Under the pieces are notes generated by a model. It made no database searches. It worked only from the letters and a program-made list of their open reading frames with translations, and had not been told where the DNA came from. From Chiloscyllium plagiosum (Eukaryota), in NCBI RefSeq assembly GCF_004010195.1, contig NC_057719.1:23835629-23899628 (forward strand): DNA of 64,000 bases, given 5' to 3'. Below are positions 7,775-63,005 of this stretch, in pieces (within the stretch, counting starts at the first letter, position 1; every line of letters starts with the position of its first letter). The position numbers and the translations under genes were made by a program.

Positions 7775-9060
7775 AAGTGGATAAATCCCCAGGACCTGAT
7801 CAGGTGTACCCGAGAACTCTGTGGGAAGCTAGAGAAGTGATTGCTGGGCCTCTTGCTGAGATATTTGTATCATGGATAGTCACAGGTGAGGTGCCGGAAG
7901 TCTGAAGGTTGACAAACGTGGTGCCACTGTTTAAGAAGGGCAGTAAAGACAAGTCAGGGAACTAGAGACCGGTGAGCCTGACCTCGGTGGTGGGCAAGTT
8001 GTTGGAGGGAATCCTGAGGGACAGAATGTACGTGTATTTGGAAAGGCAAGGATTGATTAGGGATAGTCAACATGGCTTTGTGCATGGGAAATCATGTCTC
8101 TCAAACTTGATTGAGTTTTTTGATGAAGTAACAAAGAAGATTGATGAAGGCAGAGCAGTAAATGTGATCTATATGGACTTCAGTAAGGCGTTCAACAAGG
8201 TTCCCCATGAGAGACTGATTAGCAAGGTTAGATCTCAGGGAATACAGGNNNNNNNNNNNNNNNNNNNNNNNNNNNNNNNNNNNNNNNNNNNNNNNNNNNN
8301 NNNTCAGATAAATGCGAGGTACTGCATTTTGGGAAAGCAAATCTTAGCAGGACTTATACACTTAATGGTAAGGTCCTAGGGAGTGTTGCTGAACAAAGAG
8401 ACCTTGGAGTGCAGGTTCATAGCTCCTTAAAAGTGGAGTCGCAGGTAGATAGGATAGTGAAGAAGGCGTTTGGTATGCTTTCCTTTATTGGTCAGAGTAT
8501 TGAGTAGGTTAGGCCACTATTGGAATATTGCATGCAATTCTGGTCTCCTTCCTATTGGAAAGATGTTGTGAAACTTAAAGGGTTTAGAAAAGATTTACAA
8601 GGATGTTGCCAGGGTTGGAGGATTTGAGCTACAGGGAGAGGCTGAACAGGCTGGGGCTGTTTTCCCTGGAGCATCGGAGGCTGAGGGGTGACCTTTGTAG
8701 AGGTTTACAAAATTGAGGGGTATGGATAGGATAATAGACAAAGTCTTTTCCGTGGGGTCGGGGAATCCAGAACTAGAGGGGATAGGTTTAGGGTGAGAGG
8801 TGAAAGATATAAAAGAGACCTAAGGGGCAACTTTTTCACAGAGTGGTACGTGTGTGGAATGAGCTGCCTGAGGAAGTGATGGAGGCTGGTACAATTGCAA
8901 CATTTAAAAGACATTTGGATGGGTATATGAATAGGAAGGGTTTGGAGAGATATGGGCCGGGTGCAGGCAGGTGGGACTAGATTGGGTTGGGATATCTGGT
9001 CGGCATGGACGGGTTGGACCAAAGGGTCTGTTTCCATGCTGTACCTCTCTATGACTCCGT
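7775..9060 (+). mobile_element. CR1/HER1-like LINE, 5'-truncated (spans N gap 8249-8303)
   Basis: RT motifs SLTSVVGKLLE, SQHGF, YMDFSKAF; typical 3' end ...GGGTCTGTTTCCATGCTGTA. Confidence 0.92.
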
Positions 9061-27970: not shown

Positions 27971-28009
27971 ATTTGGAACGAGAGAACATTTAACACAAAG
28001 TACATTGAG
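27971..28009 (+). CDS. GALC: GALC exon 6 (catalytic acid/base Glu in WNE)
   Basis: ttctag|IWNERTFNTKYIE|gtaagt; 39 nt. Confidence 0.95.
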
Positions 28010-30605: not shown

Positions 30606-30974
30606 TGTAAGCTTGCTCGCTGAGTTGGAAGGTTACTTTTCAGAACTTTTGTCACCTTATTAGGTAACATCATCAGTGAGCCTCCGGTGAAGCACAGGGG
30701 TTAGTGACCTGTTTTCTATTTGTATGTTTTGGTTTCCTTGGGTTGGTGATGTCATTTACTGCAGTGACATCATTTCATGTGGTGATGTCACTTGACGTTA
30801 GCATAAGAAATGATGTCACCGCAGGAAATGACATCACCAACCCAAGGAAACAGAAACACACAAATAGAAAACGGGTCACTAACCCCTGTGCTTCACCAGA
30901 GGCTCACTGATGTTACCTAATAAGGTGACAAAAGTTCTGAAAATTAACCTTCCAGCTCAGCATGCAAGCTTACA
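30606..30974. repeat. Long inverted repeat (~170-bp arms), second PLE-like family
   Basis: 30606-30776 is the reverse complement of 30807-30974; carries a decayed CTGATGA-GTTACC/GGTGAC hammerhead-like core. Confidence 0.85.
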
Positions 30975-32255: not shown

Positions 32256-32490
32256 CTAGATTACAGTGGTGCTGGAAAAGCACAGCAGTTCAGGCAGCAT
32301 CTGAGGAGCAGGAAAATCAAAGTTTCGGGCAAAAGCCCTTCATCAGGAATAGAGCTGTATTCCTGATGAAGGGCTTTTGCCCGAAACGTTGATTTTCCTG
32401 CTCCTGGGATGCTGCCTGACCTGCTGTGCTTTTCCAGCACCGCTCTAATCTGAACTCTGGTTTCCAGCATCTGCAGTCCTCACTTTTGCC
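32256..32490. mobile_element. PLE-derived palindromic element with 18-bp TSD
   Basis: Arms ~32258-32351 and 32358-32451; TSD TTCTG(G/A)TACTAACAGTTT at 32238-32255 and 32491-32508. Confidence 0.9.
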
Positions 32491-32582: not shown

Positions 32583-32710
32583 GTGCTGCGCCAGTCTCTG
32601 GATAAAATTGGTTTAAAGAATGTTGGTATTATTGCTGCTGATGGAACTTGGGGGATCGCAAATGATATGTTAGTTGATCCATACCTAAATGATGCAGTTA
32701 AAATTATAGG
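32583..32710 (+). CDS. GALC: GALC exon 7a (alternative copy of exon 7)
   Basis: ttgcaaag|VLRQSLDKIGLKNVGIIAADGTWGIANDMLVDPYLNDAVKII(G)|gtaagt; 128 nt, phase 0-2, no stop codon, homologous to exon 7b. Confidence 0.9.
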
Positions 32711-33612
32711 GTAAGTTTTTAGGGCTAACTTGTCTAAGAAATTTCAACCCATGTTTTTTGTCTGTCTTATATATCCTGGGGTCCAATTTCGTTTCACATG
32801 TACAGGATGCAAATGAAAGCCTATTTTGGATTGACTACATTCATTAGGATTGATCTGTTCTATTCCAGTGGTAAAAGAAATTCCTCTTTCTTATATTTAA
32901 TGAATGAATGGGATAGGAATTAAGCAAAAACATTGACCGTGGATCAAAATTGGAATATTAAAAATTCAAGGAATGTCTTCAAGGATAACTTTGAAATGTC
33001 CAGTGTTGCCTGTCTCCAGTGTGTATATGGAAAAAAAATATAGTTAGCCTAGTTTGGCTCCCTTCCAAATCAGCAAAAGTTTCTGATATGGCTATGAATC
33101 GTCTGCCTTTTTAAATCATCTTTTGATGTCTATCAAAAAGAATCTGACTACCAAATGGCTAGAATCCATAAAACAAACCTTTTTTGAAAATTTGGATATC
33201 TTTTATTCATTCCTGGGATGTGGGCATTGCTGGTTAGGCTAGCATTTATTGATCTTTTCTTAATTATCCAGAGGGCATTTAAGAGTCGACAAGGTAAAGG
33301 TGAAAGATTTCTTTCCCTAAAGTATTGGTGAACGAGATGAGTCTTTGCAATGATCAGTAGTGCTTCCATGGTCACCCTTTATTCCAGATGTTTTTATTGC
33401 ATTGAAATTCCATTATCTACCATGGTAAGATTCAAATCTATGTCCCAGATCAATAACCCACTATTTCACTGTCTGTCCTTTTGAAATCTAATCATTTGAA
33501 TTCTTCTACTGACCTCTTATAGGGAGACATTAAGAGTGGCAATAAATCAGATGATTGTATTATCAGCTTGGCATGTAATATGCAGTGCTTTAACCACTTG
33601 TCAAAACTATTA

Positions 33613-33644
<32 letters not shown>

Positions 33645-34589
33645 TGCTTTTCTCTTTTTTTTCTCTTCCTTTTTTGTGTTCTTTGCTCTTCCTTCTGTTT
33701 CTACTTCTCTCTCCCTACTACCTTTTGCAAGCTGAGCCCACATCTTCTTATGAAAACTGAGCTTGGAGAATTGTCAATATCAGTTATTGCAAGATCAAAT
33801 ATACCAAAGCTTTAGTACATATTTCATATATGCACAAATATCAGAAACTTTGCAACATTTTTGAATCACATATTGAATTTATGTTTGTGTTGCATCTTAT
33901 TATACATGTGAAAGAAAAATAAATGATTGTAGGGTATTTTGATAAAGATGCTGCTTTATTTACAGTCCTGCTTTGAATGTTTTTTGCTGATTTATAAATA
34001 TTAGGTCATCTGATGTTTTTGGTTGTTACTGTTAACATCCAAACCTGTGAAAATTAGAACTCAAAGGTAACTACAGAGAAAATAACACACATCTTTTGTT
34101 TTAATTTTAATGTCACTAAACCTCAAGAAAACCATTAAAAAACTAAACTATCTGTAGTAGATGCATCTGTTAGTGACATTATCAGTAAGCTTGACCACCC
34201 CACAGTTATTGTGAAGATGAAGTCTCACCTTCTCATTTAAGATGACCATCAATGTATTGTACAGCTCTATCACCATGCTCAGTGACCAAAAAGAGGCTTC
34301 GGTCTGGTGAAAGTACAGCACAGGACTAGTTAGATGCCAAGCAGTTCAACCAGCATGTGATAGACTGGGTTAAGTGATCTCAAACAACAGATCAATTTAA
34401 TGCTCTGGAGTTCTGCTAGATCCAGTTGTGATTAGTTGTGGTCAACAAAATAACTCACTTAAAGAGAGTTCTACAAATGTCTTTATTGAAGTGATTGGGG
34501 AGCACAGCACATCAGTGCAGCGGACAAGGTTGAAGCATGTCCAAGCGCTGTGAGCCAAATATACTGAGTGTGAGTGAATGCTCTATCTC

Positions 34590-36450
34590 AACTTCTTCCT
34601 GAGATTTCCACCATCTTGGATGCCAACATGTCAGCTAATTGATACACTCCACACGATATCGTGAAACAGCTGAAGGCACCGGATACTGCAAAGGCTATGG
34701 GTCCTCACAAAATTGTGGCAGTAATAGTGAAAAAGTGCCCCAGATCTATCCATGCCCTTAATGAGCTGTTTCAGTATAGTTGCTGGTATCAACCTGGCAA
34801 CATGTAAAATTGCCTAGATGTGTCTGGTGTGCAAAAATAGAATGAATCCGACATGAACCATTATTGCCTCATCAGTTTACATTCAGTAATCAACAAAGCT
34901 TTGAAAGGTTTCATTGACAGCAGTATCGATGACTGTCTTTATCCATGTTTGTCTGCTCACTGATGTAAAATTTGGGTTCCACCAGGCATACTCCACTCTT
35001 AATCTCATCACAGACTAAGTCCAAACATGAACAAAATAATGGAACTCAATGGACTCTGCCCTTGACATCAAGATGATTTTTGATTGAAATGACATCAAGG
35101 AACCCCAGTAAGACTGGACTCATTGGAAATTAGAAAGAACACTCTGCTGCTTGGAGTCATAGCTATCACAAGGGAAGGTTTTAGATTACATTACAGTGTG
35201 GAAACAGGCCCTTCGGCCCAACAAGTCCACACCGACCCGCCGAAGCGTAACCCACCCATACGTTTATCCCTTACCTAACACTACGGGCAATTTAGCATGG
35301 CCAATTCGCCTGACCTGCAATTCGCCTGACCTTGTGGGAGGAAACCGGAGCACCCAGAGGAAACCCACACAGACACGGGGAGAACGTGCAAACTCCACAC
35401 AGTCAGTCGCCTGAGGCGGGAATTGAACCCCGGTCTCTGGCGCTGTGAGGCAGCAGTGCTAACCACTGTGCCACCGTGCCGCCCATAAGGTTGTTGTTGT
35501 GATTCTTGGAGGTCAGTCATCTCAGCTATAGGACATCATGGCAGGATTTCCTGAGGGTAGTATCCTAAGCCCAACCATCTTCAGCAACTTCATAATGACT
35601 TTCCCTCCATAATAACATCAGAAGTCAGGATGGTTACTGATTGTTCAGCTCCATTAGCAATGCATCAAATACAGAGGCAGTCCGTGTCCAAATACAGCAA
35701 GACCTGGACAACAGTCAGGCATGAGTTAGTGTGATGTAAGTGTTCTTTGTAACTTGTACATAAGTAACAGGAAATGCTCACCACCTACAAGTGAGAATCT
35801 AGCCATCACCCCTTGACATTGAGTGGCATTAGCATCGCAGAATTCCACACTATCAACATCCTGGGGTTACCATTGACTAGAAACAAAGCTGGTCTAGCAC
35901 TAATAATACTGTGGTTACAGGAGCGGGTTGAAGGCTGGGCATTCTCTGGTGAGTAACTCACCATCTGGCTCCTCAAAATCTGTTCACCAGACTGTGATAG
36001 AATACTGTATATTTGCCTTGATGAGTGTAGCTCTTGCAACACTCAAGAAGATAAACACATTTGAAGACAAAGCAATTCACTCTATTATCATTCCATTCTC
36101 TACTTTCAAAATTTATTCTCTCCACCTCCACAGTGGCACATACAACTGCCACCTGTCGGGAGCATTGCAGTAACTCACCAAAAGTCTTTTTCCAAACTCA
36201 TTACCTCGGTCATGTAGAAGATCAAGGGCAGCAGAAGTAGGGCAACATCATCCCCAAGCTGCACATCCTGACTTGGACCTATATTACCATTCCTTCATTG
36301 TTGCTGATCCAAAATTCTGGAACTTACTTCCCTACAGCACAAGATGAACCTAAACCATGCGAACTGCAGCAGTTCAAAAAGGTCACCACCACCCACTCAA
36401 ATGCAATTAGGAATGTTAGTCTAACGAGTAATGCCTACATCCCGTTAATA
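34590..36450 (+). mobile_element. CR1/L2-clade LINE RT and 3' portion with nested HE1 SINE (35182-35485, minus)
   Basis: LDTAKAMGP, LDIK..FD and G.P.GS.L.PTIF-like motifs; same family as 41330-44920. Confidence 0.75.
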
Positions 36451-37199
36451 AGTAAAAATGAATAAATAGTATATGTTGACAACTGGCAATTTTCTATTGT
36501 TCAAAGAAAATACTTCTGTAGATCTTGTTGCTTTTCCAAATGTAATCCATTTTAAGGATTTTGTGAACACCAAATACTGATGAGCTATTTACTAAAGTAT
36601 GTGCGATATTTGACAATGGACTGTGTATTCTGACAACTGTTAGAATTAACATTTAATGAGCAGATCATCAACATTACAGTCAAGTTTAAATAAAATTCAC
36701 AATGTGATTAAGTTGGTGTTAAATTCTATTTCTGTGCCATGAATGGTATATAGTCATAATTGTACATGGTGAATCAGTTTTGTTAATAACAGGATACAGG
36801 CATTTTCAGCACTCCTCCCTAACACCTTGTTATTACATATTCATTGCCTGCACGTCTTCTGATGTGATTTTCAAGAAAAACAAATTAGAATTTTTTTGCT
36901 TATTCTCTACCCAAAAAAAAAATCTAGTACTTCAGTAGAAATTGTTTGAGCAGTTCTGTGTATTTTGTTTTTTTCACAGTAGCTGCTTATTAGTTGATTG
37001 CAATGTTGACAAGGTGATTACTTAACACAAATATGATAGTTAAAGCTAAAAATGAAACAAAATCAGGTAACTGATGTAATTAGGAAAACCAGGCTTTTTA
37101 CAGTACAAAATACTGTTTGTGCATTACCAGCTTTAATGGTTTAGTGAATTTACTGATAAACCTGCAAAATTTCTTCAAACATGGACTACAATCTTTAAT

Positions 37200-38990
37200 A
37201 AAATCAGAAATTGATGGAAAACCTCAGCAGATCTGGTAGGAACTGTGAAGGTAAAATTAACATTTTGGGTCCAAATGAAGACCCTACTTTAGAATTGACT
37301 TGAGCAAGGAAAAGGTTGACATAAATGCTGAAGATGGTGCAGGAGGAGTGGGGAGGAGTAAATGATAGGTAGAGATAGAGAGAAGGTCAAAGGTGTGGTC
37401 ATGGGCCTAGTTATGCCTGTCTTTTTGTGGGGTACATGGGTTCCTTGTTCTGGTCGGATATGAACCCCCACCCACAACTCTTTCTCCGTACATCCATTAC
37501 ATCATTGTTGCTGCTTCCCTGTCCTGTCTGGATTGGAAAAGTTTATTAATTCCAATATCCACCCGCCTTTACCTTTTCACTTGGTCCATCTCTGACTCCT
37601 CCCTTCCCTTCCTCAACATCTGTTTCCATTTCTGGGATAGGCTGGCCACCAATATCCACAACAAATGCACTCACTCCTATAGTTACCTTGATTATAAATT
37701 GTCACACTCTGCTTTCTGTAAAGACTGTATTCCATTCTCCCAGTTTCTCTGACTCCATTGCATCTGTTCCAATAATGCCATCTTCTGCAAGAGGGCCTCC
37801 AAAATGTACACCACCTTCCTTGTCTGAGGATTCCCCACAACTGTGGTTGACAGTACCCTCAGCTGTGCCTGACCCATCTCCCACCCCTTTGTCTTCACCT
37901 ACCATCTCACCAGCATTCACATTCAAAGGATCCTTAGCTGCCAATTCTGCCACCTCCAGCAGGATGTCACCAGCAGGCACACATTCCCCTACTCTCCCTT
38001 ATCAGCCTTCCACAAGGACCATTCCCTCTGTGGTACCTTGGTCTGTTCCTCCTCCACTCCCAACAGCGCTCCACAGCATCTCCCCATTCAATTGCAAGTG
38101 GTGCAATTTTTGGCTGTTTACTTCCTCTCTGTTCATTATCCAAGGGCCCAGACGCACCTTCCAGATGAAGCAAAGATTTACCTGCTCCAATCAATCTAGT
38201 TTACCATATTCACTGTTCAGTGTAGTCTGCTGTATACTGGGGAGATGAAATGCAACTTAGGAGATTGCTTTGCAGAACACTTATATTCTGTCTGCAAAAA
38301 TGACCCTGAGCTTCATGTTACCTGCCACTTCAGCACCACCACCATGTTCTCTGGCCAACATCTCTGTCTCAGGCTTGCTGTAGTGCTGCAGCAAAGCTCA
38401 GCACAAGCTGAAAGAACAGAGTCTCATTTTCCACTTGAGGATCCTGAAGCCTTCCAGGCTCAATATAAAGTTCAATAATTTTAGGAACAAAATCAGAAAT
38501 TACAGGAAAAGCTCAGCTGGTCTGGCAGCATCTGTGTAGAGAAGTAAGTTAACAATTTCAGGTCCGGTGACTCTCAACTTTGGGGCCTTTAACTTTAGTT
38601 CCTGAGCATCTTTGACTGTGACATTGCCGCAAACCCTACACGCCAGACCTTGTCATCACATGGGCTGCTACCAAGAACAACGACTGTCAGCCATTATTGG
38701 TCCCCTATTGATTCTCCCAGGCTGATCTTTTGCCCATTCCTTTTTCTCACTCCGTGTCTGTCTCTTCCCCTCCTTCTGGACTCATCTCCACTTATCTCTC
38801 CATCCTCTTCCTCCACTCCATCTTCAGCATATATATCAACCTAGCTAAAATCAGTTCTGAAGAAGAGTCACTGGACCTGAAATGTTAACTGTCACCTGTT
38901 CATAGATGCTGTCAGACCTGCTGTGCTTTTTACAGCAATTTGTTTTCTGATTTCCAGCCTTTGTAATTCTTTGGATTTTTTTTTTGTTTA
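37200..38990 (+). mobile_element. Penelope-like element, 5'-truncated (RT C-terminus plus GIY-YIG, with inverted terminal-repeat copies)
   Basis: LPFLNI...DRLATNI...SHSYLDY RT tail; Y.GE.K..LGD.FAEHL.SV GIY-YIG region near 38230-38340; terminal unit at 38850-38985 with inverted copies near 37200 and 38490. Confidence 0.85.
38852..38891 (+). ncRNA. Minimal type I hammerhead ribozyme motif (PLE-associated, probably degraded)
   Basis: Stem I CAGTT/AACTG, core CTGAAGA, imperfect stem II AGAGTC-ACTG-GACCT, GAAA, then GTT. Confidence 0.55.
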
Positions 38991-41329
38991 GTGCTCCAAT
39001 CTTTAAGTTTATTTTTGTAATTTCCACTGGGAATAATATGTGACAAAACCACTGCCTTATTTAACTGTTTAAATATTTTATCCAAACTGATCATCAATGC
39101 CCTAGCTATGCAGTCATTCAGTATGCTGTATCTGGGATAGATGAGAGTTGTTGCTTTATTGAATCACTCAGCTTGCATGATCTTTCAAGTTCTAATGAAT
39201 CTCTCTGAGCAGTTAAGTTTTTCTTTTGGCAGTGAGAAGTAGTCACGGCCTTGCTGCACTAATCCTCCTTCATCCGGTGAGTCAGTGTTGTGGGAAGAGT
39301 GGGCCTAATATGGCAATCTCCTTTCTTTATTTGTTGCTTCCTCTTTGACATGACTATTACAGTGCAAAGTCATCTTTTTCCTTTCTGAATAGATTCAGAT
39401 AATTTTAACCCACTGTGGGGGGGGGTGCAGTTAGAAAATTTTAGAACAGGCCACCCAGCAATGGTTTTTCTGCAATGCTGTTTCTAGCTTCTGGCAAGGC
39501 AGGACTTCAGTACTAAGGCCCATGATTTGCATAAAAACTTACTGGTCAGCTCTTAAGGATTGAAGTTTGTCTGGGGATGGTGAGTCACTTGTCACTGAAG
39601 ATCCCCATCCTCATAATTGGTGTTTGGATCATTAAATCTCAGCCAGAGTGTTGCCCTTTAAGATAGCGATTGGGAGGAATTTTCTTCTCAAAGTGTCATT
39701 ATTCTTGGGCATTCTGTTCCTCAGACTGCAGTGGAGACCTGCCATGTCCAACTCAACTTTGAAAATATTCCAAGTTTTTATTGACAAGGGAATTACGGTT
39801 ATTGAGGACAGGCAAATACAAAGAATTATACAACACTGCAACAGGCTCCTTGGCCCACCAATACTACACCAAATCACTCAAAGCCATTTGCCTCTTTGCT
39901 ACCAATATACCTCAACTTTTTGCCTATTCATATTTCAGTCAAAATCCTTCTTAAACTTTATCCTCCTTCTCTGGCAGCATATACCAGGCACTTGCCACTC
40001 TCTCTATTTTTCAAAAAAAAACTTGCCTCTCAGATCTCCTTTTAAGAATATGGAGTTAAGGCCACAAACTTAGCTGTATCCATATCAAATGGCAGAAGGA
40101 CTGAGTGGCCTACTCCTATTTCCTAAGACACATTAGTTGATGGGATGGTGGCCAGCTTGTGGCCCAGATACAATGCAGCTTGATGGGCTTACTTCACATA
40201 GTTGGAAATTGTGGAGGTGACTCTGTTGTAATTGTTTAAAGTTGCTTTTTTTTAATATGATTTTGATATTGTAGCTTCTACTTCAAAGTTTGTGTATATC
40301 GTAATGATTTTGTTTCCTGTCAAATGTTCAGAAAACTAATTCTGATCTGTGTTTTGTACCTATTGGTTTGCTATTCATGAGAAATCTTCATTCTGATTGG
40401 CCAATCAGCCTGCTTGTTGATATCATCCTTTCTGGACAGCACACATCTTGAATAAATAATGTCTGTTTCAAAATAATGTTAAATATGCTATTTCACATTC
40501 CAAAGCCCATTGAATCTTATGGGCAATGTTTTTTTTTAAAATTAGCAGAGTGCATTGCCTCAGACTCATCTGAATTAAATATTTCAGATTAATGTTGTCA
40601 AATGACTAAGCAATAACTGTTGTTTCTGCCAGCCTTGTATTTTTTGAATTCTGTGATGGGGTGTCTCATTGCTACCAAGGTCAGGGTTTTTTGTCAATCC
40701 CTAATTACCCTTGAACTGAGTGGCTTGCCATGCTATTTCATGGAATCTAAAAGTCAACCATATTGCTGTGGATCTGGTATTGTATATAGGTCTGTCAGGT
40801 AAGGTCTGAATGTTTCTTTCCTGAAAGAACTTTAGTGAACCAACAGCATTTTTTATAGCTGTTTATGATTTGCTGACTACCATTATGAAGGCTACTTTTC
40901 AACTTCAGTTTCTTTGTTTAAAAACAAATTTAATTTGTATCATGAGTAAAAACAAAGTGTTGTAGAAACTCAGTATGTCTGGCAGATTTGCAAAGAACCA
41001 AAAAATGTGAACATTTCAAGTCCAGTGTGACTCTTCAGCTGCTATGGTGGGATTTGAACCCATGTACTGAGAACATTAGTCTTTGTCTCAGCATTAAAAT
41101 TATCTCAACATCTTCCCTGCCTTTAACTAGATGATGGTTGTACTTTGCATTGTAAGATGTGTTGTTTTTTTTCTTTAGCCTGCATAAATGCATTAGTGCT
41201 TTGGATCTTTCTAAGAGTGACAGAGACCATATTTAAAATTAATTTCAGCACAAATTTCAGGGAAGACTCAACTGGCTTGTATTTCTAGCTCTTGTCCACT
41301 ATGCATTTAACAGTAAATTGTTTAATCCC

Positions 41330-44300
41330 ATCCTTAATTGGAGGGCAGGAAGACGATAAGCTCGTGGTATCATTGTTAATGTTCTGAGGTCATGAGTTTG
41401 AATCCTGCCACAGTAGATGGTGGAATTTAAGAATCTACTGAAGACAGTGAAACCATTCACTGTCAGAAAAGCCCATCTGGTTCACTGAAGTTCTTCTGAG
41501 AAAGCAACCTATCATCCTGACTTGGTCTAGCCTCCAGAACTGATACACTCAACTGCCCTATACACCCGAATAGATGGCAGAAATAGCCCTATAGACCCCA
41601 CTAAGAAGACCTTACTAACATCTGGGGCTAGAGCCAAAATTAGAAGAGCTATCTCAGACCAGTTGAGCAACAGCTTGGCATTGTCAAGCTTACAGAATTC
41701 TAACTGACGGGCAATGTCCAGGCACCAGGATCACCATTCCAATGCCAGGACAGACCCAGCAGAAGTAGTGGCACAGTAATATACAGTCAGGAGGGAATTG
41801 CCCTTCGAATACTTAACATTGACTCCAGACCCCATGAAGTCTCATGGCTTCAGGTTGAACATGGGCAAAGAAATTACTTGCTGATTACCACATACTGTCC
41901 TCCCTCGGCTGATGAATCAATACCCTCATGTTGATCAACACACAGAGGAAATGCTGAGAGTGGCAAGGGTGCAAATTATTTTGTTTTATTGACATGTACA
42001 TGGACAGTATATGGGTCACCATTTACAATACCATCTTGGGTACAAAAGTACCTAGGTACAGCTTCTTCAATTACAAGATGTTAGAAAATAGAGAAATAAA
42101 ACGTCCAGCATCGCAGAATAAAAGTTCAGAACAATGTTGTTCCAACCCAGACCACAGTGGCATCCTCCAGTCTGCAGTAGCCCCAGATCATTCCAAGCTT
42201 CACCTCAAGGTTCATGAGCCTGGGAGATTGAAGTCCAACACCAAGAATGGCTCAGCAGCAGTACTATTGATCAAGTTGGTTGGATCCTAAAGGACATAGT
42301 TGCTAGACTGAATCTGCAGCACTGGTGAGAGAACCAAGAGGGGGGCAAAGCATACTTGACCTCATCCTTGCCAATCTGCTGGCTGCAGATGCATCTGTTA
42401 TTGCCAGTATCAATAAGAGTGACCACTGCACAGTCCTTGAGGAGACCAAGTTCTGCTTTCAAATTGAGACCTTCCTCCATTGTGACTATCACCATGCTAA
42501 ATTGGACAGACTTTGAACAGATCCAGCAACTCAAGACCTGGCATCCATGAGAGTCATCAACAGTAGCAGAATTGTACTCCAGCACTCCCTGGCACAGCAT
42601 ATGGGATCAACCCTGATTCAATGGAGAGTCCAGGAGGGCATGACAGGAGCTTCTCCAGGCATACATGAAAATGAGATGTCAACCTTGTGAAGCTACCAAA
42701 CTAGCTTAATTGCATACCAAACAACATAAGCAGCAAGAGCTAAACGGAACAAAGCAGCAAGTGAAAGACATAGCTAAGTGATCCCACAACTAACAGATCA
42801 GATTTACGCTCTGCAATCCTGTCCCATCAAGTCATGAATAAATAACTCACTGAAGGAGGAGACTTCTTCATTTCCCTATCCTCAATGATGGAAGAGCCCA
42901 ACAGATAAATGCAAATGATAAGACTGAAGCAACTTTCAGCCAGAAGTGCCAAGTGGGTGAACTATGTCAGCCTCCTCCAGTGGTCCTCAGCATTACAAAT
43001 ATCTGTCCTCCTTCAGCTGATGAACCCTCCATGTTGAACAACATGTGGAGGAAGCACTGAGGTACCAATCTGCAGCCAATTCGATTCACTCCATGTGATA
43101 TCAAGAAACGGTTGGAGGCACTGGATGCTGCCAAGGCTATGGGCTGTGACAACATTTTGGCAATAGTATTAAAGACTTGTGCTTCAGAACTTGTGACTCC
43201 CTTAGCCAAGCTCTTCCAGTACAGTTACAACACTGTCCAGGTATGTCCCATACATACAAAGCAGAACAAATTCAACCAATTAGCACTCTGTCAGTCTACT
43301 CTCGATCATCAATAAAGTGGTAGAATGTGTCATCTCTTTAACAGTGCTATCAAGCAGAATCTGCTCACTGATGCCCAGTTTGGGTTCTGCCATTCGACTC
43401 TTAACCTCATTACAGCCTTGGTTCAAACACTGACAAAAGAGTTGAATTAGAGGTGAGTGTGACAGCCCTTGAAATCAAGGCCGCATATGACCGTGTGGCA
43501 TCAAGGAGCCCCAGCAAAACTGGAATCAATGGGTATTGGGAGGAAAACTCCCCTGGTTGGAGTCATTACTTGACATATAGGAAGAAATTTGTTGGAGGTC
43601 AGTTATCTCAATCCAGGACATTTCTGCAAGAGTTCCTCAGGGTAGTGCTCTAGGCTCAGTCACCACCTTTTGCTTCATTGATGACCTTTCCTCCATCACA
43701 AGGTCTAAAGTTTGTTTACCAATGATTGCACAATATTCAGCACCAGTCACAACTCCTCAGATAATGAAGCAGTCCATGTTCAAATGCAACAAGATCTGTT
43801 GGACAATATCCAGGCTTGGGCTGACAAGTGGCAAGAAATATTTGTCACACAAATGCCAGGCAATTCGAGACATTCAGTGGTTTAACCATCACTGAACCCC
43901 CACTGTTAAAATCATTGGGGTTACCATTGACCAGAAACTCAACTGGACTGGTCACATAAACACCTATGGCTACAACAGTATTTCGGAGGCTAGGAGTATC
44001 TCACCTCCTGACTCCTCACTTGCCTGGATGGGTGCTGCTCCAACAACACTCGAGCTTGACACAATTCAGGGCAAAGCAGCCACTTAATTGACACCACATC
44101 CAGACAGATCTAATCCTTCCATCACCATAGCAGTAGTATGTGACAATGAACAACATTATGTTGTCTTTGGTTTTTTTCAGAGGGGTCATAAAGTCAGAGG
44201 TTCTAATATATCTGGGTTTAACTACTTGAGAATGCTTTTAAGTCTTGCACAATGAAAGGGGAGCGGCCAGTACTCACTGCTCAGGATTTGTTTTGGTTTG

Positions 44301-44920
44301 AGTAGACTGGCTGTTTCGCAGCTGCTGGTCAAGTCTTAGCTGGGAACTCAGAAGCTGCTGGACCCAAAGAAACAGCTCCATGCTGATTTTTTTTTTTCTT
44401 CCCCCTCTTCCCCCTCTTTCTCTCCTCTCTCGTAAGAACCTGTATTTGATTTTATCTTTTTATGTTTATGGGGACGCATAAATAAATTCTGTTTTGTTTA
44501 AAACCAGGTAGTTGATACATTGTTCACCTGCTTAAAACAACTAATAAAGTTAGGGTCTGGGCTACCTTCTTGAAATGTTTTGGGGGGATCTGGCCTAGTT
44601 CATAATAAGTGTATACTGTCTACAAAATGCACTGCAGAAATTCACTGAAGATCCTTAGACAGCACCTTCTAAGTTTACAACCACTTCCACATAAAAGGGC
44701 AGAATAAAGATGGAAGCACCACCATCTGCAAGTTCCCCTCCAAGCTGCTGACCACCCTGACTTGGAAATATATTGCCATTCCTTCACTGTCGCCAGGTCA
44801 AAATCCTGGAATTCTCTCAGCAGCAGTTTAAGAAAGCAGTTCACCACCACAATAGCAACTAGGGACAGGCAGTAAAGGCTGGCCAGCCATTGATACCAAC
44901 ATCTGATAAGTGAATTAAAA
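41330..44920 (+). mobile_element. Long degraded CR1/L2-clade LINE (APE endonuclease plus RT), interrupted by other inserts
   Basis: RQDRPS, PHEVSWLQV, REPRG..ILDLILANL, SDHCTV, LDAAKAMGCDNI, ALEIKAAYDRV; 3' end resumes after 44608. Confidence 0.8.
44139..44607 (+). mobile_element. Probable solo LTR nested in the LINE
   Basis: Starts TGTGACA, ends CATAATA (decayed CA end), internal AATAAA; LINE sequence continues across it. Confidence 0.5.
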
Positions 44921-45784
44921 AGAGGTGGTAAACATAAAACAGCATGGGAACAGGCCCTTCAGCCCATCATATTTGTACTGTGCGCAATGCTAATCCAAAA
45001 TAATTCCATCAGTGCGCACATGGTCCATGTCCCTTCTCTTCTCTGTTTACATGTCCATCTGAATGCCTCAAACATTGCTATCATGTCTGCTTCTAATCAG
45101 ACTACAGTAGTGCAGCATTGATTCACCAACTTACCTTCCTGTCAAGCAAATGGTCTATAATTTTACAGAAAAGTTCAGTTTGAAATCAGCGTATATATAT
45201 TATGTAAAGTGACCTCAGATTCTTTCATTTTAATGTTACAACTAATTTTCAGTGCAAGATTGCCAAATGTACTGCACTTAAGCATTTTTCACTTGAGCAA
45301 TTTTGAGTTGTAAATTGCTCCTTTTCTTTTCTTTGTTGTATGCTATAGATTTTTCACAAATTTGCAGTGCATGTTAATAGTTTGAGATCTGTGTTTGATA
45401 TCAGCCAAATTTAAAACTTTCAACTTATTATAATTGATGTTTCTGTGTTGTAATATGAAAACGTACCTGTTCTCAGTGCTTTGCACTGGCCCACTTACGG
45501 ATTTGCTAGTTTTGCTTGAAAATAGGAGGGTGAAAGCCAGTTGTGTATGCCAACACACATTAGGAGTATAATGAATTTGAAAAGAACACGTTTTTTTAAA
45601 AAAAATAAATAGCTGCAAAATGTTTCAAAGGTGAGTGTAGGATGCGTGAGAGTCCAATATCTATAGACACTTCCTAATTGTAACTTCTGTCTTACAAATT
45701 TGTATTCACTCCTAAGTTTAATTGCATTGTGCTTAGTTAGCTAAAATGCTAACATTTCCTTTGACTATCTCTTTTTCTGCCAAG

Positions 45785-45915
45785 CTGCTGAGATACACCA
45801 TGGACAAAATGGGTCTAGAGCAGGTGAAAATCATAGCCAGCGATAATCTTTGGGAACCAATATCTTGGTCTGTGCTTCAAGATACTGAACTATGTGATGT
45901 GGTCGACATTATTGG
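45785..45915 (+). CDS. GALC: GALC exon 7b (mammalian-like exon 7)
   Basis: tgccaag|[43 protein letters not shown](G)|gtaggc; 131 nt, phase 0-2. [11 protein letters not shown] matches mammalian GALC as I recall it. Branch-like GCTAAC about 35 nt upstream. Confidence 0.94.
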
Positions 45916-46505
45916 GTAGGCATTTATATGCTCTATTCTCGCAAGGTAATAACAATTATTAGGTTTCCAATGTCAGTGAGCTGCTTCTTTGGGGAAGTTC
46001 TTTGCACTTGGATGTCACCTGACTTGATACTGCAATTTGAAATCTAACATTCGAGGTATTCCACATATGTGCAGCTATAGAGACAAGCAGTCTAACTATA
46101 CATACTCCTTGCTGGGTTACAAATGTCAGTGTATAACTTGAAGTGGGAAAGAAATTGAAAACCAAATACGTGACGAGGTCAATGTTTTTGCCTAGGTCAC
46201 TTTTTTTTTATCCTTTAATGTGGTAAATCCAATATGTAAATCTAATATAGCAAAATCAATTCAAATGGTTGAAGCTGATCACCAACTTATCAAGATTTTA
46301 TTAATTTTCACCTTTCTCTGTTAACATTTAGCTGTATTTCTGAAGTTGCATTTAATGTGTTTGGGCATGAAATCCATAGCGCATACCATAATTGTTGGTT
46401 TTTAAAAATGGTCTGTTTTAAAGTCGAACTAGGTGTAATTATTTTCAATGTTTGAATGAAATGTAAACACTTTTGGGTTTATGAATATTTTGTTTTATAT
46501 CTTAG

Positions 46506-46661
46506 AGCCCATTATCCTGGAACATTGTCAAGCAGTAATGCCAGGAAGACTGGAAAGAAGCTATGGTCATCTGAAGACTACAGTACTGTTAATGATAATG
46601 TTGGAGGAGGTTGCTGGGCTCGTATACTTAACCAGAATTTTGTCAATGGCAATATGACTTC
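46506..46661 (+). CDS. GALC: GALC exon 8 (catalytic nucleophile Glu in WSSED)
   Basis: cttag|(G)[51 protein letters not shown](S)|gtaagt; 156 nt. Confidence 0.97.
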
Positions 46662-57105: not shown

Positions 57106-59524
57106 ATAGAGTCATAAAGATGTACACCATGGAAACAGACCCTTCGGTCCAACCCGTCCATGCCAACCATATATCCCAACCTAGTCTAGTCCTACCTGCC
57201 AGCATCTGGCCCATATCCCTCCAAACCCTTCCTATTCATATACCCATGCAAATGCCTCTTAAATGTTGCAATTGTACCAGCCTCCACCACATCCTCTGGC
57301 AGCTCATTCCATACACGTATCACCACCTATGTGAAAAAGTTGCCCCTTGGGTCTCTTTTTTTTAATATCTTTCCCCTCTCACCCTAAACCTACGCCCTCT
57401 AGTTCTGGACTCCCCGAGCCCAGGACTTTGCCTATTTACCCTATCCATGCCCCTCATAATTTTGTAAACCTCTATAAGGTCACCTCTCAGCCTCTGACGC
57501 TCCAAGGAAAACAGCCCCAGCCAATTTAGCCACTCCCTATAGCTCAAATCCTCCAACCTTGGCAACATCCTTGTAAATCCGATAGGAAGGAGACCAGAAT
57601 TGCACGCAGTATTCCAACAGTGGCCTAACCAATGTCCTGTACAGCCGCAACATGACCTCCCAACTCCTGTACTCAATACTCTGACCAATAAAGGAAAGCA
57701 TACCAAATGCCATCTTCACTATCCTATCTACCTGTGACTCCACTTTCAAGGAGCTATGAACCTGCACTCCAAGGTCTCTTTGNNNNNNNNNNNNNNNNNN
57801 NNNNNNNNNNNNNNNNNNNNNNNNNNNNNNNNNNNNNNNNNNNNNNNNNNNNNNNNNNNNNNNNNNNNNNNNNNNNNNNNNNNNNNNNNNNNNNNNNNNN
57901 NNNNNNNNNNNNNNNNNNNNNNNNNNNNNNNNNNNNNNNNNNNNNNNNNNNNNNNNNNNNNNNNNNNNNNNNNNNNNNNNNNNNNNNNNNNNNNNNNNNN
58001 NNNNNNNNNNNNNNNNNNNNNNNNNNNNNNNNNNNNNNNNNNNNNNNNNNNNNNNNNNNNNNNNNNNNNNNNNNNNNNNNNNNNNNNNNNNNNNNNNNNN
58101 NNNNNNNNNNNNNNNNNNNNNNNNNNNNNNNNNNNNNNNNNNNNNNNNNNNNNNNNNNNNNNNNNNNNNNNNNNNNNNNNNNNNNNNNNNNNNNNNNNNN
58201 NNNNNNNNNNNNNNNNNNNNNNNNNNNNNNNNNNNNNNNNNNNNNNNNNNNNNNNNNNNNNNNNNNNNNNNNNNNNNNNNNNNNNNNNNNNNNNNNNNNN
58301 NNNNNNNNNNNNNNNNNNNNNNNNNNNNNNNNNNNNNNNNNNNNNNNNNNNNNNNNNNNNNNNNNNNNNNNNNNNNNNNNNNNNNNNNNNNNNNNNNNNN
58401 NNNNNNNNNNNNNNNNNNNNNNNNNNNNNNNNNNNNNNNNNNNNNNNNNNNNNNNNNNNNNNNNNNNNNNNNNNNNNNNNNNNNNNNNNNNNNNNNNNNN
58501 NNNNNNNNNNNNNNNNNNNNNNNNNNNNNNNNNNNNNNNNNNNNNNNNNNNNNNNNNNNNNNNNNNNNNNNNNNNNNNNNNNNNNNNNNNNNNNNNNNNN
58601 NNNNNNNNNNNNNNNNNNNNNNNNNNNNNNNNNNNNNNNNNNNNNNNNNNNNNNNNNNNNNNNNNNNNNNNNNNNNNNNNNNNNNNNNNNNNNNNNNNNN
58701 CTATACCTACCAGCCTTTCCTTTCACCCTAACAGGAATATACTTTCTCTGGATTCTCGTTATCTAATTCCTGAAGGCTTCCCATTTTCCAGCCATCCCCT
58801 TACTTGCGAACATCTGCCCCCAATCAGCTTTTGAAAGTTCTTGTCTAATACTGTCAAAATTGGCCTTTCTCCAATTTAGAAATTCAACTTTTAGATCTGG
58901 TCTATCCTTTTCCATCACTATTTTAAATCTAATATAATTATGGTCACTGGCCCCAAAGTGTTCCCCTACTGACACCTCAGTCACCTGCCCTGCCTTATTT
59001 CCCAAAAGTAGGTCAGGTTTTGCACCTTTTCTAGTAGGTACATCCACATACTGAAAATTGCCTTGTACGCACCTAAGAAATTCCTCTCCATCTAAACCTT
59101 TAACACTTTGGCAGTCGCAGTGTATGTTTGGAAAGTTAAAATCCCCTACCATAACCACCCTATTATTTTTACAGATAGCGGAGATCTCTTTACAAGTTTG
59201 TTTCTCAATTTCCCTCTGACTATTGTGGGGGTCTATAATACAATCCCAATAAGGTGATCATCCCTTTCTTATTTCTCAATTCCACCCAAATATCTTCCCT
59301 GGATGTATTCCCGGGAATATCCTCCCTCAGTACGGCTGTAATGCTATCCCTTATCAAAAATGCCACTCCCCCCCTCCTCTCTTGCCTCTCTTTCTATCCT
59401 TCCTGGAGCATTAAGCTGCCAGTCCTGCCCATCCCTGAGCCATGTTTCTGTAATTGCTATGATGTCCCAGTCCCATGTTCCTAACCATGTTCATCTGCCT
59501 TCCCTGTTAGGCCCCTTGCATTTG
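57106..59524 (-). mobile_element. CR1/HER1-like LINE (endonuclease to 3' end; spans N gap 57783-58700)
   Basis: VGDFNFPNI, PTRKGA..DLLLGN, SDHN (APE); LVRPLLEYCVQFWSP, LRGDLIEVYKIM. Confidence 0.92.
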
Positions 59525-62029: not shown

Positions 62030-63005
62030 GGGTCAGGAAGAGGAAGGGAGGCAAGAGAGGAGGGGGAGTGGCATTTNNNNNNNNNNNNNNNNNNNNNNNN
62101 NNNNNNNNNNNNNNNNNNNNNNNNNNNNNNNNNNNNNNNNNNNNNNNNNNNNNNNNNNNNNNNNNNNNNNNNNNNNNNNNNNNNNNNNNNNNNNNNNNNN
62201 NNNNNNNNNNNNNNNNNNNNNNNNNNNNNNNNNNNNNNNNNNNNNNNNNNNNNNNNNNNNNNNNNNNNNNNNNNNNNNNNNNNNNNNNNNNNNNNNNNNN
62301 NNNNNNNNNNNNNNNNNNNNNNNNNNNNNNNNNNNNNNNNNNNNNNNNNNNNNNNNNNNNNNNNNNNNNNNNNNNNNNNNNNNNNNNNNNNNNNNNNNNN
62401 NNNNNNNNNNNNNNNNNNNNNNNNNNNNNNNNNNNNNNNNNNNNNNNNNNNNNNNNNNNNNNNNNNNNNNNNNNNNNNNNNNNNNNNNNNNNNNNNNNNN
62501 NNNNNNNNNNNNNNNNNNNNNNNNNNNNNNNNNNNNNNNNNNNNNNNNNNNNNNNNNNNNNNNNNNNNNNNNNNNNAGGGAGAGGCTGAACAGGCTGGGG
62601 CTGTTTTCCTTGGAGTGTCGGAGGGTGAGGGGTGACCTTATAGAGGCTTACAAAATCATGAGGGGCATGGATAGGATAAATAGACAATTTCTTTTCCCTG
62701 GAATCAGGGTGTCCAGAATTAGAGGGCATAGGTTTTGGGTGAGAGGGGATAGATATAAAAGACCTAAGAGCCATCTTTTTCAGGCAGAGGGTGGCACGTG
62801 TATGGAATGAGCTGCCAGAGGAAATTGTGGAGGCTGGTACTATTGCAACATTTGAGGCATTTGGATGGGTATATGAATAGGAAGGGTTTGGAGGGATATG
62901 GGCTGTCTGCTGGCAGGTGGGACTAGATTGGGTTGGGATATCTGGTCGGCATGGACGGGTTGGACCGAAGGGTCTGCTTCCGTACTGTACATCTCTATGA
63001 TTCTA
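62030..63005 (+). mobile_element. CR1/HER1-like LINE (spans N gap 62077-62577)
   Basis: KRGGGVAF APE motif before the gap; RGDLIEAYKIMRG and 3' end after it. Confidence 0.88.

Follow-up and report, generated by a model that had tools for sequence, protein, structure and literature searches.

Described pairs of homologous mutually exclusive exons, such as OGDH 4a/4b and ATE1 7a/7b, are ancient and frame-compatible, and each swaps one segment of a folded domain (catalogue in PMC8373072). The same holds for two copies of exon 7, here 7a and 7b, in the GALC gene of the shark Chiloscyllium plagiosum, which we analysed in a stretch of 64,000 nt (assembly GCF_004010195.1, contig NC_057719.1, positions 23,835,629 to 23,899,628 of the forward strand; hereafter the window). 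The pair is real, ancient and, judged by its conservation, functional. We slightly favour the reading that both copies go back to one ancestral tandem duplication, are used either-or, and give enzymes with the same catalytic residues that differ at the saposin A (SapA) rim.

GALC differs from the known cases in several respects. It is a lysosomal hydrolase and, unlike the pairs in the human catalogue, it is missing there, which fits a loss of 7a in mammals (no match in the searchable supplement of PMC8373072, against five for the OGDH control). Unlike the short-intron cases explained by steric hindrance, its 7a-7b intron is 13 kb long. In docking-site/selector systems (14-3-3zeta, Mhc and MRP1, in the accessible part of PMC6071210), as would be the case in GALC, an arm downstream of the cluster base-pairs with one that follows the upstream exon, which loops out the downstream exon; in GALC, however, one candidate arm pair and no competing second selector were found, hence we do not place it in that family. 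Mouse GALC and its complex with saposin A (PDB 3zr5, 4ccc and 5nxb; PMC5764952) are 65% identical to the shark protein, with the same fold and catalytic motifs. Only two PDB sequences matched, both of the 7b type, and no 7a-type structure was found among them; mouse GALC being 7b type bears out the initial annotation, made from the letters of the window alone, which had stated that the mammalian exon 7 resembles 7b.

That annotation could not tell whether the pair is annotated in non-mammalian vertebrates. RefSeq settles the question, as its automatic annotation has the pair as GALC isoforms X1 and X2 in many of them (Hemiscyllium XP_060684540 and XP_060684541, Callorhinchus, Latimeria, Columba), X1 usually with 7b and X2 with 7a. 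These are automatic models only, unlike a described pair. Our literature search, whose scope left out subscription papers and bioRxiv supplements, found no paper on the pair, its age, losses or function. None of the duplicated-exon papers listed names GALC in its text, the searchable supplements of PMC7954323 and PMC4494069 did not contain it, and splicing is not mentioned in the accessible text of the zebrafish knockout paper PMC12493051. The pair is thus machine-annotated but undescribed as far as the literature search reached.

The gene and the exons concerned lie in the window as follows.

4282 to 61165, + strand: GALC exons 1-14, located by tblastn of close shark proteins; the last exons lie beyond the window
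27971 to 28009, + strand: exon 6, 39 nt, common upstream exon bearing the acid/base Glu (WNE), located by tblastn, with E182 assigned via the mouse chain alignment
32583 to 32710, + strand: exon 7a, 128 nt, phase 0-2, ancestral-like copy with a strong donor (GG/GTAAGT)
45785 to 45915, + strand: exon 7b, 131 nt, phase 0-2, the copy that mouse retains, encoding E215-P216, with a weaker donor (GG/GTAGGC)
46506 to 46661, + strand: exon 8, 156 nt (coordinates corrected), common downstream exon bearing the nucleophile Glu (SSED)

The coordinates, lengths (both 2 mod 3), AG/GT sites and open frames first reported for 7a and 7b were all verified, as was the position of exon 7 between the exons of the acid/base and nucleophile glutamates. 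The reported identity of 21/44 is made up of 20 of the 43 aligned residues and the Gly codon that is split, and the single codon indel was confirmed. At the nucleotide level the copies match at 20, 32 and 17 of 42 codons for codon positions 1, 2 and 3, which is the pattern of an old coding divergence. The gene has the WNE and SSED motifs and the GALC fold of a GH59 enzyme, with Pfam PF02057, PF21708 and PF17387 on close orthologues, and the two exons are of a tandem kind, i.e. homologous, in one gene, of the same phase and with canonical splice sites. With 7a alone or 7b alone the frame stays open through exon 14. The nearest named proteins come from Hemiscyllium and Chiloscyllium, as suits a bamboo shark.

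Exon 7 is also the sole duplicated exon, as had been proposed: tblastn of shark GALC against the window recovered exons 1-14 once each and exon 7 twice, and sequence comparison found no remnant of any other exon between exons 6 and 8. The introns around 7a and 7b have no mutual homology beyond chance except for an inverted 18-nt match. In the whole genome the 7a peptide matches exons 7a and 7b alone and exon 8 has one match, so this is a single GALC gene and not a collapsed duplicate. A larger duplication or a second GALC gene was rejected, the flanking exons being single-copy in both window and genome, and the HYP at 38134 has no exon 8 homology by tblastn. Two minor features of the exons can be added. 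At aligned residue 41 of 7a (region 32703-32705) this shark has Lys and the nearest sharks have Glu; Lys is shared with some teleost 7a sequences, so it looks tolerated. In four batoid proteins, from skates and an electric ray, 7b has lost one codon and is hence 128 nt long like 7a.

Isoforms with either 7a or 7b were found in databases for chimaera, sharks, rays, bichir, sturgeon, teleosts, coelacanth, amphibians, tuatara, crocodilians and birds. A protein search with 7a gave 13 matches from sharks, rays and teleosts, most of them named isoform X2, and their cluster mates named X1 carry 7b. The 7a profile gave 317 matches, and the 120 listed, which include no mammal, turtle or otophysan name, add chimaera, sturgeon, lungfish, coelacanth, caecilians, frogs, tuatara, squamates and birds. 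Cluster look-ups yielded either-or pairs for chimaera, sturgeon, bichir, coelacanth, caecilian, tailed frog, tuatara, crocodilians and pigeon. The 370 vertebrate protein records comprise 154 with 7a alone, 178 with 7b alone, 15 with both fused, 3 with neither and 20 lacking the span; these records are redundant and query-selected, and the counts are not frequencies. The 15 fused models always have 7a before 7b, joined via odd junctions, which gives the genomic order 7a-7b, and none is a named RefSeq X isoform.

In annotated records 7a was absent from all 6 monotreme, 23 turtle, 13 catfish and 15 characiform entries and present in 6 of 11 crocodilian ones (one turtle cluster has 65 members, 15 of them among those listed). 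Apart from mouse, taken from PDB, the set contains no placental or marsupial record, nor any of lamprey or zebrafish galca/galcb. Exon 7a was thus apparently lost in mammals and repeatedly in other lineages, as judged from annotation and not from genome searches. For lungfish there are two GALC records, one with 7a and one with 7b, whose accessions are consecutive. Outside exon 7 they are identical at 145/165, 124/136 and 222/297 positions (75-91%) and therefore represent two genes, which makes lungfish a candidate for splice forms split between two genes. Five bird and turtle models join exon 7 to exon 9 and omit the nucleophile-bearing exon 8; such a form, if real, would be inactive.

Among 45 exon peptides, a tree separates 17 7a rows from 20 7b rows with support 99/97 and in 100% of 200 bootstrap trees, on 44 columns, which are few for 45 rows. 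The simplest reading is one tandem duplication before the chimaera/bony-fish split, likely in the jawed-vertebrate ancestor. The one hagfish record has a single 43-residue exon of mixed character, placed between the clades at weak support, and this single model does not prove that cyclostomes are without the pair. Since the duplication each copy has stayed about 70% identical from shark to bird, similar to the constitutive neighbours: averaged over 11 species, identity to the shark is 0.71 (7a) and 0.70 (7b), compared with 0.77, 0.71 and 0.76 for exons 5, 6 and 8. Long selection on both copies, previously argued from their open frames, is upheld at the protein level by these values, the two clades and the open, conserved orthologues of both. 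The proposal was to be given up if 7a were disabled or neutrally evolving in relatives; it is open and conserved from chimaera to birds.

The copies are unequally diverged, with a stem of 1.03 for 7b and 0.51 for 7a. We scored 125 non-vertebrate or jawless segments against both profiles. At least 10 bits were reached by 113 of them, with 90 in favour of 7a and 21 in favour of 7b. The 7b-type motif W-x-P-I/V occurs in 4 of the 125, and amphioxus slightly favours 7b. Exon 7a therefore appears to be the more ancestral-like copy, and the one kept by mouse the more derived. Three distant non-vertebrate homologues have a 7b-like loop (ASD-x-x-W-E/D-P-I), possibly by convergence.

Either-or splicing is supported by transcripts of orthologues. 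In damselfish brain (58 libraries, Table S4 of PMC12215730, accessible part) galcb stands in the mutually-exclusive block of the rMATS output: the alternative exons measure 131 and 128 nt and their neighbours 156 and 39 nt, all four matching the sizes in shark GALC. The inclusion form has a length of 217, i.e. 128 + 89, so the inclusion counts belong to the 128-nt exon, 7a. It has 550 reads vs 2718, a mean share of 0.167 (range 0.025-0.313), and both forms occur in 58/58 libraries. A second row of the same table gives 7a as a skipped exon before 7b, with 373 vs 1048 reads. Deconvolution of the two rows, assuming even coverage, gives a rough estimate of 81% 7b only, 16% 7a only and 2% with both, and predicts 2636 reads where 2718 were observed. 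The accessible text of that paper names GALCB for a skipped-exon event with a premature stop and does not mention an exon pair there. In stickleback gill the same 131/128-nt event is listed and is not differential between ecotypes (Table S2c of PMC12159805, as far as accessible).

Six Logan-derived proteins, one with 7a (the full protein, on a 2814-nt contig) and five with 7b, come from contigs of 2-3.4 kb, which reflect transcripts as they are too short to hold the introns. Together with the database isoforms, these data from orthologues substantiate the mutually exclusive use first suggested from the sequence, and the spliced 7a reads of two teleosts answer, in relatives, the objection that 7a might never be spliced. 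We regard either-or use in C. plagiosum itself as nearly certain. RefSeq short isoforms of two sharks begin at an ATG within 7b; they would fit transcripts frame-shifted upstream, e.g. by double inclusion of 7a and 7b.

Regarding the mechanism, transcripts with an early stop far upstream of the last exon junction are subject to decay. Inclusion of both exons is computed to give a stop at 45789, and skipping of both a stop at 46536. Because these stops lie far upstream of the last junction, wrong products would probably be cleared by nonsense-mediated decay. Two other explanations were rejected. Steric exclusion is at odds with a 7a-7b intron of 13,074 nt here and of 3,443 and 1,985 nt in two teleosts, and U12/U2 incompatibility with the GT-AG sites of U2 type in both exons. 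Exon 7a combines a donor matching 7 of 9 consensus positions with the lack of any branch-point consensus within 60 nt. In 7b the donor is weak (5/9), and there is a CTAAC branch site. Counts of RBFOX, QKI, MBNL and PTB motifs around 7a and 7b were unremarkable. The elements considered in the mechanism are the following.

45749 to 45755, + strand: consensus-like branch point CTAAC, 36 nt upstream of 7b, positioned from the consensus only
32924 to 32938, + strand: candidate RNA arm A, 213 nt past the 7a donor, a 15-nt perfect complement of arm B
46177 to 46191, + strand: candidate RNA arm B, in intron 7b-8, 261 nt past 7b and 314 nt before exon 8

ATE1 is said to use long-range RNA structure in the control of its mutually exclusive exons. 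The two GALC arms lie where pairing would loop out the alternative exon 7b, and their duplex can be extended to about -27 kcal/mol. A complement of 15 nt was reached in 0 of 400 shuffles, and just one of the ten flank pairings tested beat its shuffles. A rough chance estimate is about 0.005 after allowing for the ten pairings. Among 376 flank pairs of GALC just one longer match was found (21 nt), between repeat-like copies. The 15-mer itself is not a repeat, as it has 12 copies in the 3.56 Gb genome, both arms included, against 19 for the control. No second complement of arm B was found within 3 mismatches, and its best local partner forms a loose duplex of -20 kcal/mol. From this sequence alone the duplex is a candidate element. 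In the mechanism that we propose, 7b would be the default exon, and the duplex would loop out the 13-kb intron together with 7b and place the 7a donor beside exon 8. That it thereby favours 7a inclusion is a tentative suggestion, somewhat short of even confidence. A loose pairing of the start of intron 6 with the stretch before 7b (-26 to -31 kcal/mol) outdid its shuffles in a test of 6 only and lacks a long perfect core; it is not claimed. A 194-nt near-perfect palindrome (32258-32451) ends 131 nt before the 7a acceptor; it is a dispersed repeat (40 of 3995 candidates scored), and its predicted hairpin of -171 kcal/mol could affect use of that acceptor.

Exon 7 corresponds to residues 192-235 of mouse GALC (residue numbers via the mouse alignment, offset +14, checked on E182, G144 and S146), and both catalytic glutamates lie outside it. 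In AlphaFold models of both forms it reads as helix, strand, loop, helix and strand, with a local predicted local distance difference test (pLDDT) of 80-90 for 7a and 65-89 for 7b and whole-model means of 63 and 66. The best structural match of the 7a model is mouse GALC. The swap would rebuild helix 4, strand 5, the following loop, helix 5 and strand 6 of the barrel. In 115 distinct 7a and 111 distinct 7b sequences the core residues L193, R194, A209, D211, W214 and G235 are invariant in both types. Type-specific positions (7a/7b) are V/L192, A/S210, G/N212, D,N/L213, variable/E,Q215, gap/P216, N,K/F,L219 and Y/E226, with L/M213, an invariant P216 and mostly hydrophobic residues at 219-220 in 7b. 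The indel maps onto E215-P216, the site of the Krabbe variant at E215. As described in the accessible parts of the sources, E215 lies on the surface away from the active site (PMC4949656), E215K GALC is folded, trafficked and active (PMC5764952, PMC4949656), and E215 adjoins the SapA footprint without direct contact, the named direct contacts being G144, S146, R520 and T523 and the binding being charge- and pH-dependent (PMC5764952).

A change in docking seems to us more likely than one in chemistry, because the E215 surface site adjoins the SapA footprint, E215K stays folded and active, and the glutamates are outside exon 7. Docking of saposin-lipid particles or membranes would differ between the two forms, and with it lipid turnover in cells, while soluble galactosides would be cut alike; we see the chances of this as evenly balanced. 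Among the functional effects guessed at in the initial annotation (substrate preference, pH optimum and activator dependence), the last would fit best and is our best guess.

Several observations weigh against our reading. E215 makes no direct contact with SapA, and the named SapA contacts are all outside exon 7 (accessible text of PMC5764952); at residue 215, 20% of 7b sequences have Q, and lungfish has L. The docking argument thus depends on proximity. As the loop that follows strand 5 also faces the catalytic side, the swap may affect catalysis, and the mediocre AlphaFold models are too rough to compare the forms or to yield distances. The arm duplex is without a competing second selector and contains an A5/U5 run. 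The transcript support comes from other species only; 7a is the minor form in damselfish brain, the sole tissue with counts, and no tissue switch is evident. Finally, 7a seems dispensable in several lineages.

An unlikely alternative is that intrinsic catalysis differs, with the strand-5 loop reshaping the aglycone side or the pKa of the acid/base Glu and thereby altering pH optimum or the choice among substrates (galactosylceramide, psychosine, lactosylceramide) independently of saposin. It would account for the location of exon 7 between the two catalytic exons, for fixed differences flanking the invariant D211 and W214 (A/S210, G/N212, D/L213) and for the 90 of 113 non-vertebrate homologues closer to 7a, as expected if 7a keeps an older specificity. 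However, the named active-site residues E182, E258, W291 and R380 are, in the accessible descriptions, all outside exon 7, and E215 is described as not near the active site, with activity kept in E215K.

We think it quite improbable that the two activities are nearly equal and the pair is kept for stability, trafficking, another partner, or a splice switch that tunes dose via decayed frame-shifted transcripts. The double inclusion, estimated at only about 2%, the premature-stop event flagged for galcb in the accessible damselfish text and the apparent repeated loss of 7a would suit such a function, but a mere dosage switch has no need of exon-specific residues fixed across the jawed-vertebrate tree, nor of the one gene per type retained by lungfish. 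That 7a is a dead duplicate or an artefact of assembly or annotation, for which only the absence of junction reads from this species speaks, is refuted for the family and scarcely credible here, given open conserved 7a orthologues from chimaera to birds, spliced 7a reads in two teleosts, a full 7a protein on a 2814-nt contig and single-copy flanking exons.

If the preferred docking reading is taken further, jawed vertebrates would ancestrally make a 7a enzyme of the old type and a 7b enzyme whose longer stem (1.03 against 0.51) would reflect a rim remodelled, as myelin arose, for SapA-presented galactosylceramide; the choice would be made by the 13-kb RNA duplex, and mammals would have kept the myelin type only, so that the second GALC was missed. 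We put this forward as an improbable extension. Its link to the origin of myelin is one of timing only; to our knowledge, jawless fish are without myelin. If true, a natural second GALC that differs in activator dependence has gone unnoticed in studies of human, mouse and perhaps zebrafish, and the 7a enzyme, which might work without saposin A, would directly test what encodes saposin specificity.

Nearly all work on GALC, the Krabbe-disease enzyme, concerns species with apparently one exon 7. A second form kept from chimaera to birds is a natural experiment on the surface adjoining the saposin A site, the same surface at which E215K, a disease variant that folds and stays active, presumably fails. 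The class of mechanism is familiar, but the finding should surprise a specialist in Krabbe disease or sphingolipids. Ancient events that mammals have lost escape catalogues of duplicated exons based on human genes, and in lungfish the putative division of splice forms between two genes can be put to the test. Anyone building a construct or knockout in fish, amphibians or birds needs to know which of the two exons is in it.

Some further features were noted. The runs of N in the window (8249-8303, 57783-58700 and 62077-62576) are all intronic, and none lies between exons 6 and 8. A 369-nt palindromic element in intron 6 (30606-30974), 89% self-complementary, is probably another repeat. The 7a-7b intron contains two diverged collinear repeat copies (34159-36322 and 42387-44811; 68-78% in patches), likely old retroelement fragments. 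A metagenome scan for host DNA spanning both introns gave one unrelated match and, on one contig (10001-10125), a bird-like GALC stretch with exons 3-7a, which is host DNA; that contig stops at the end of 7a.

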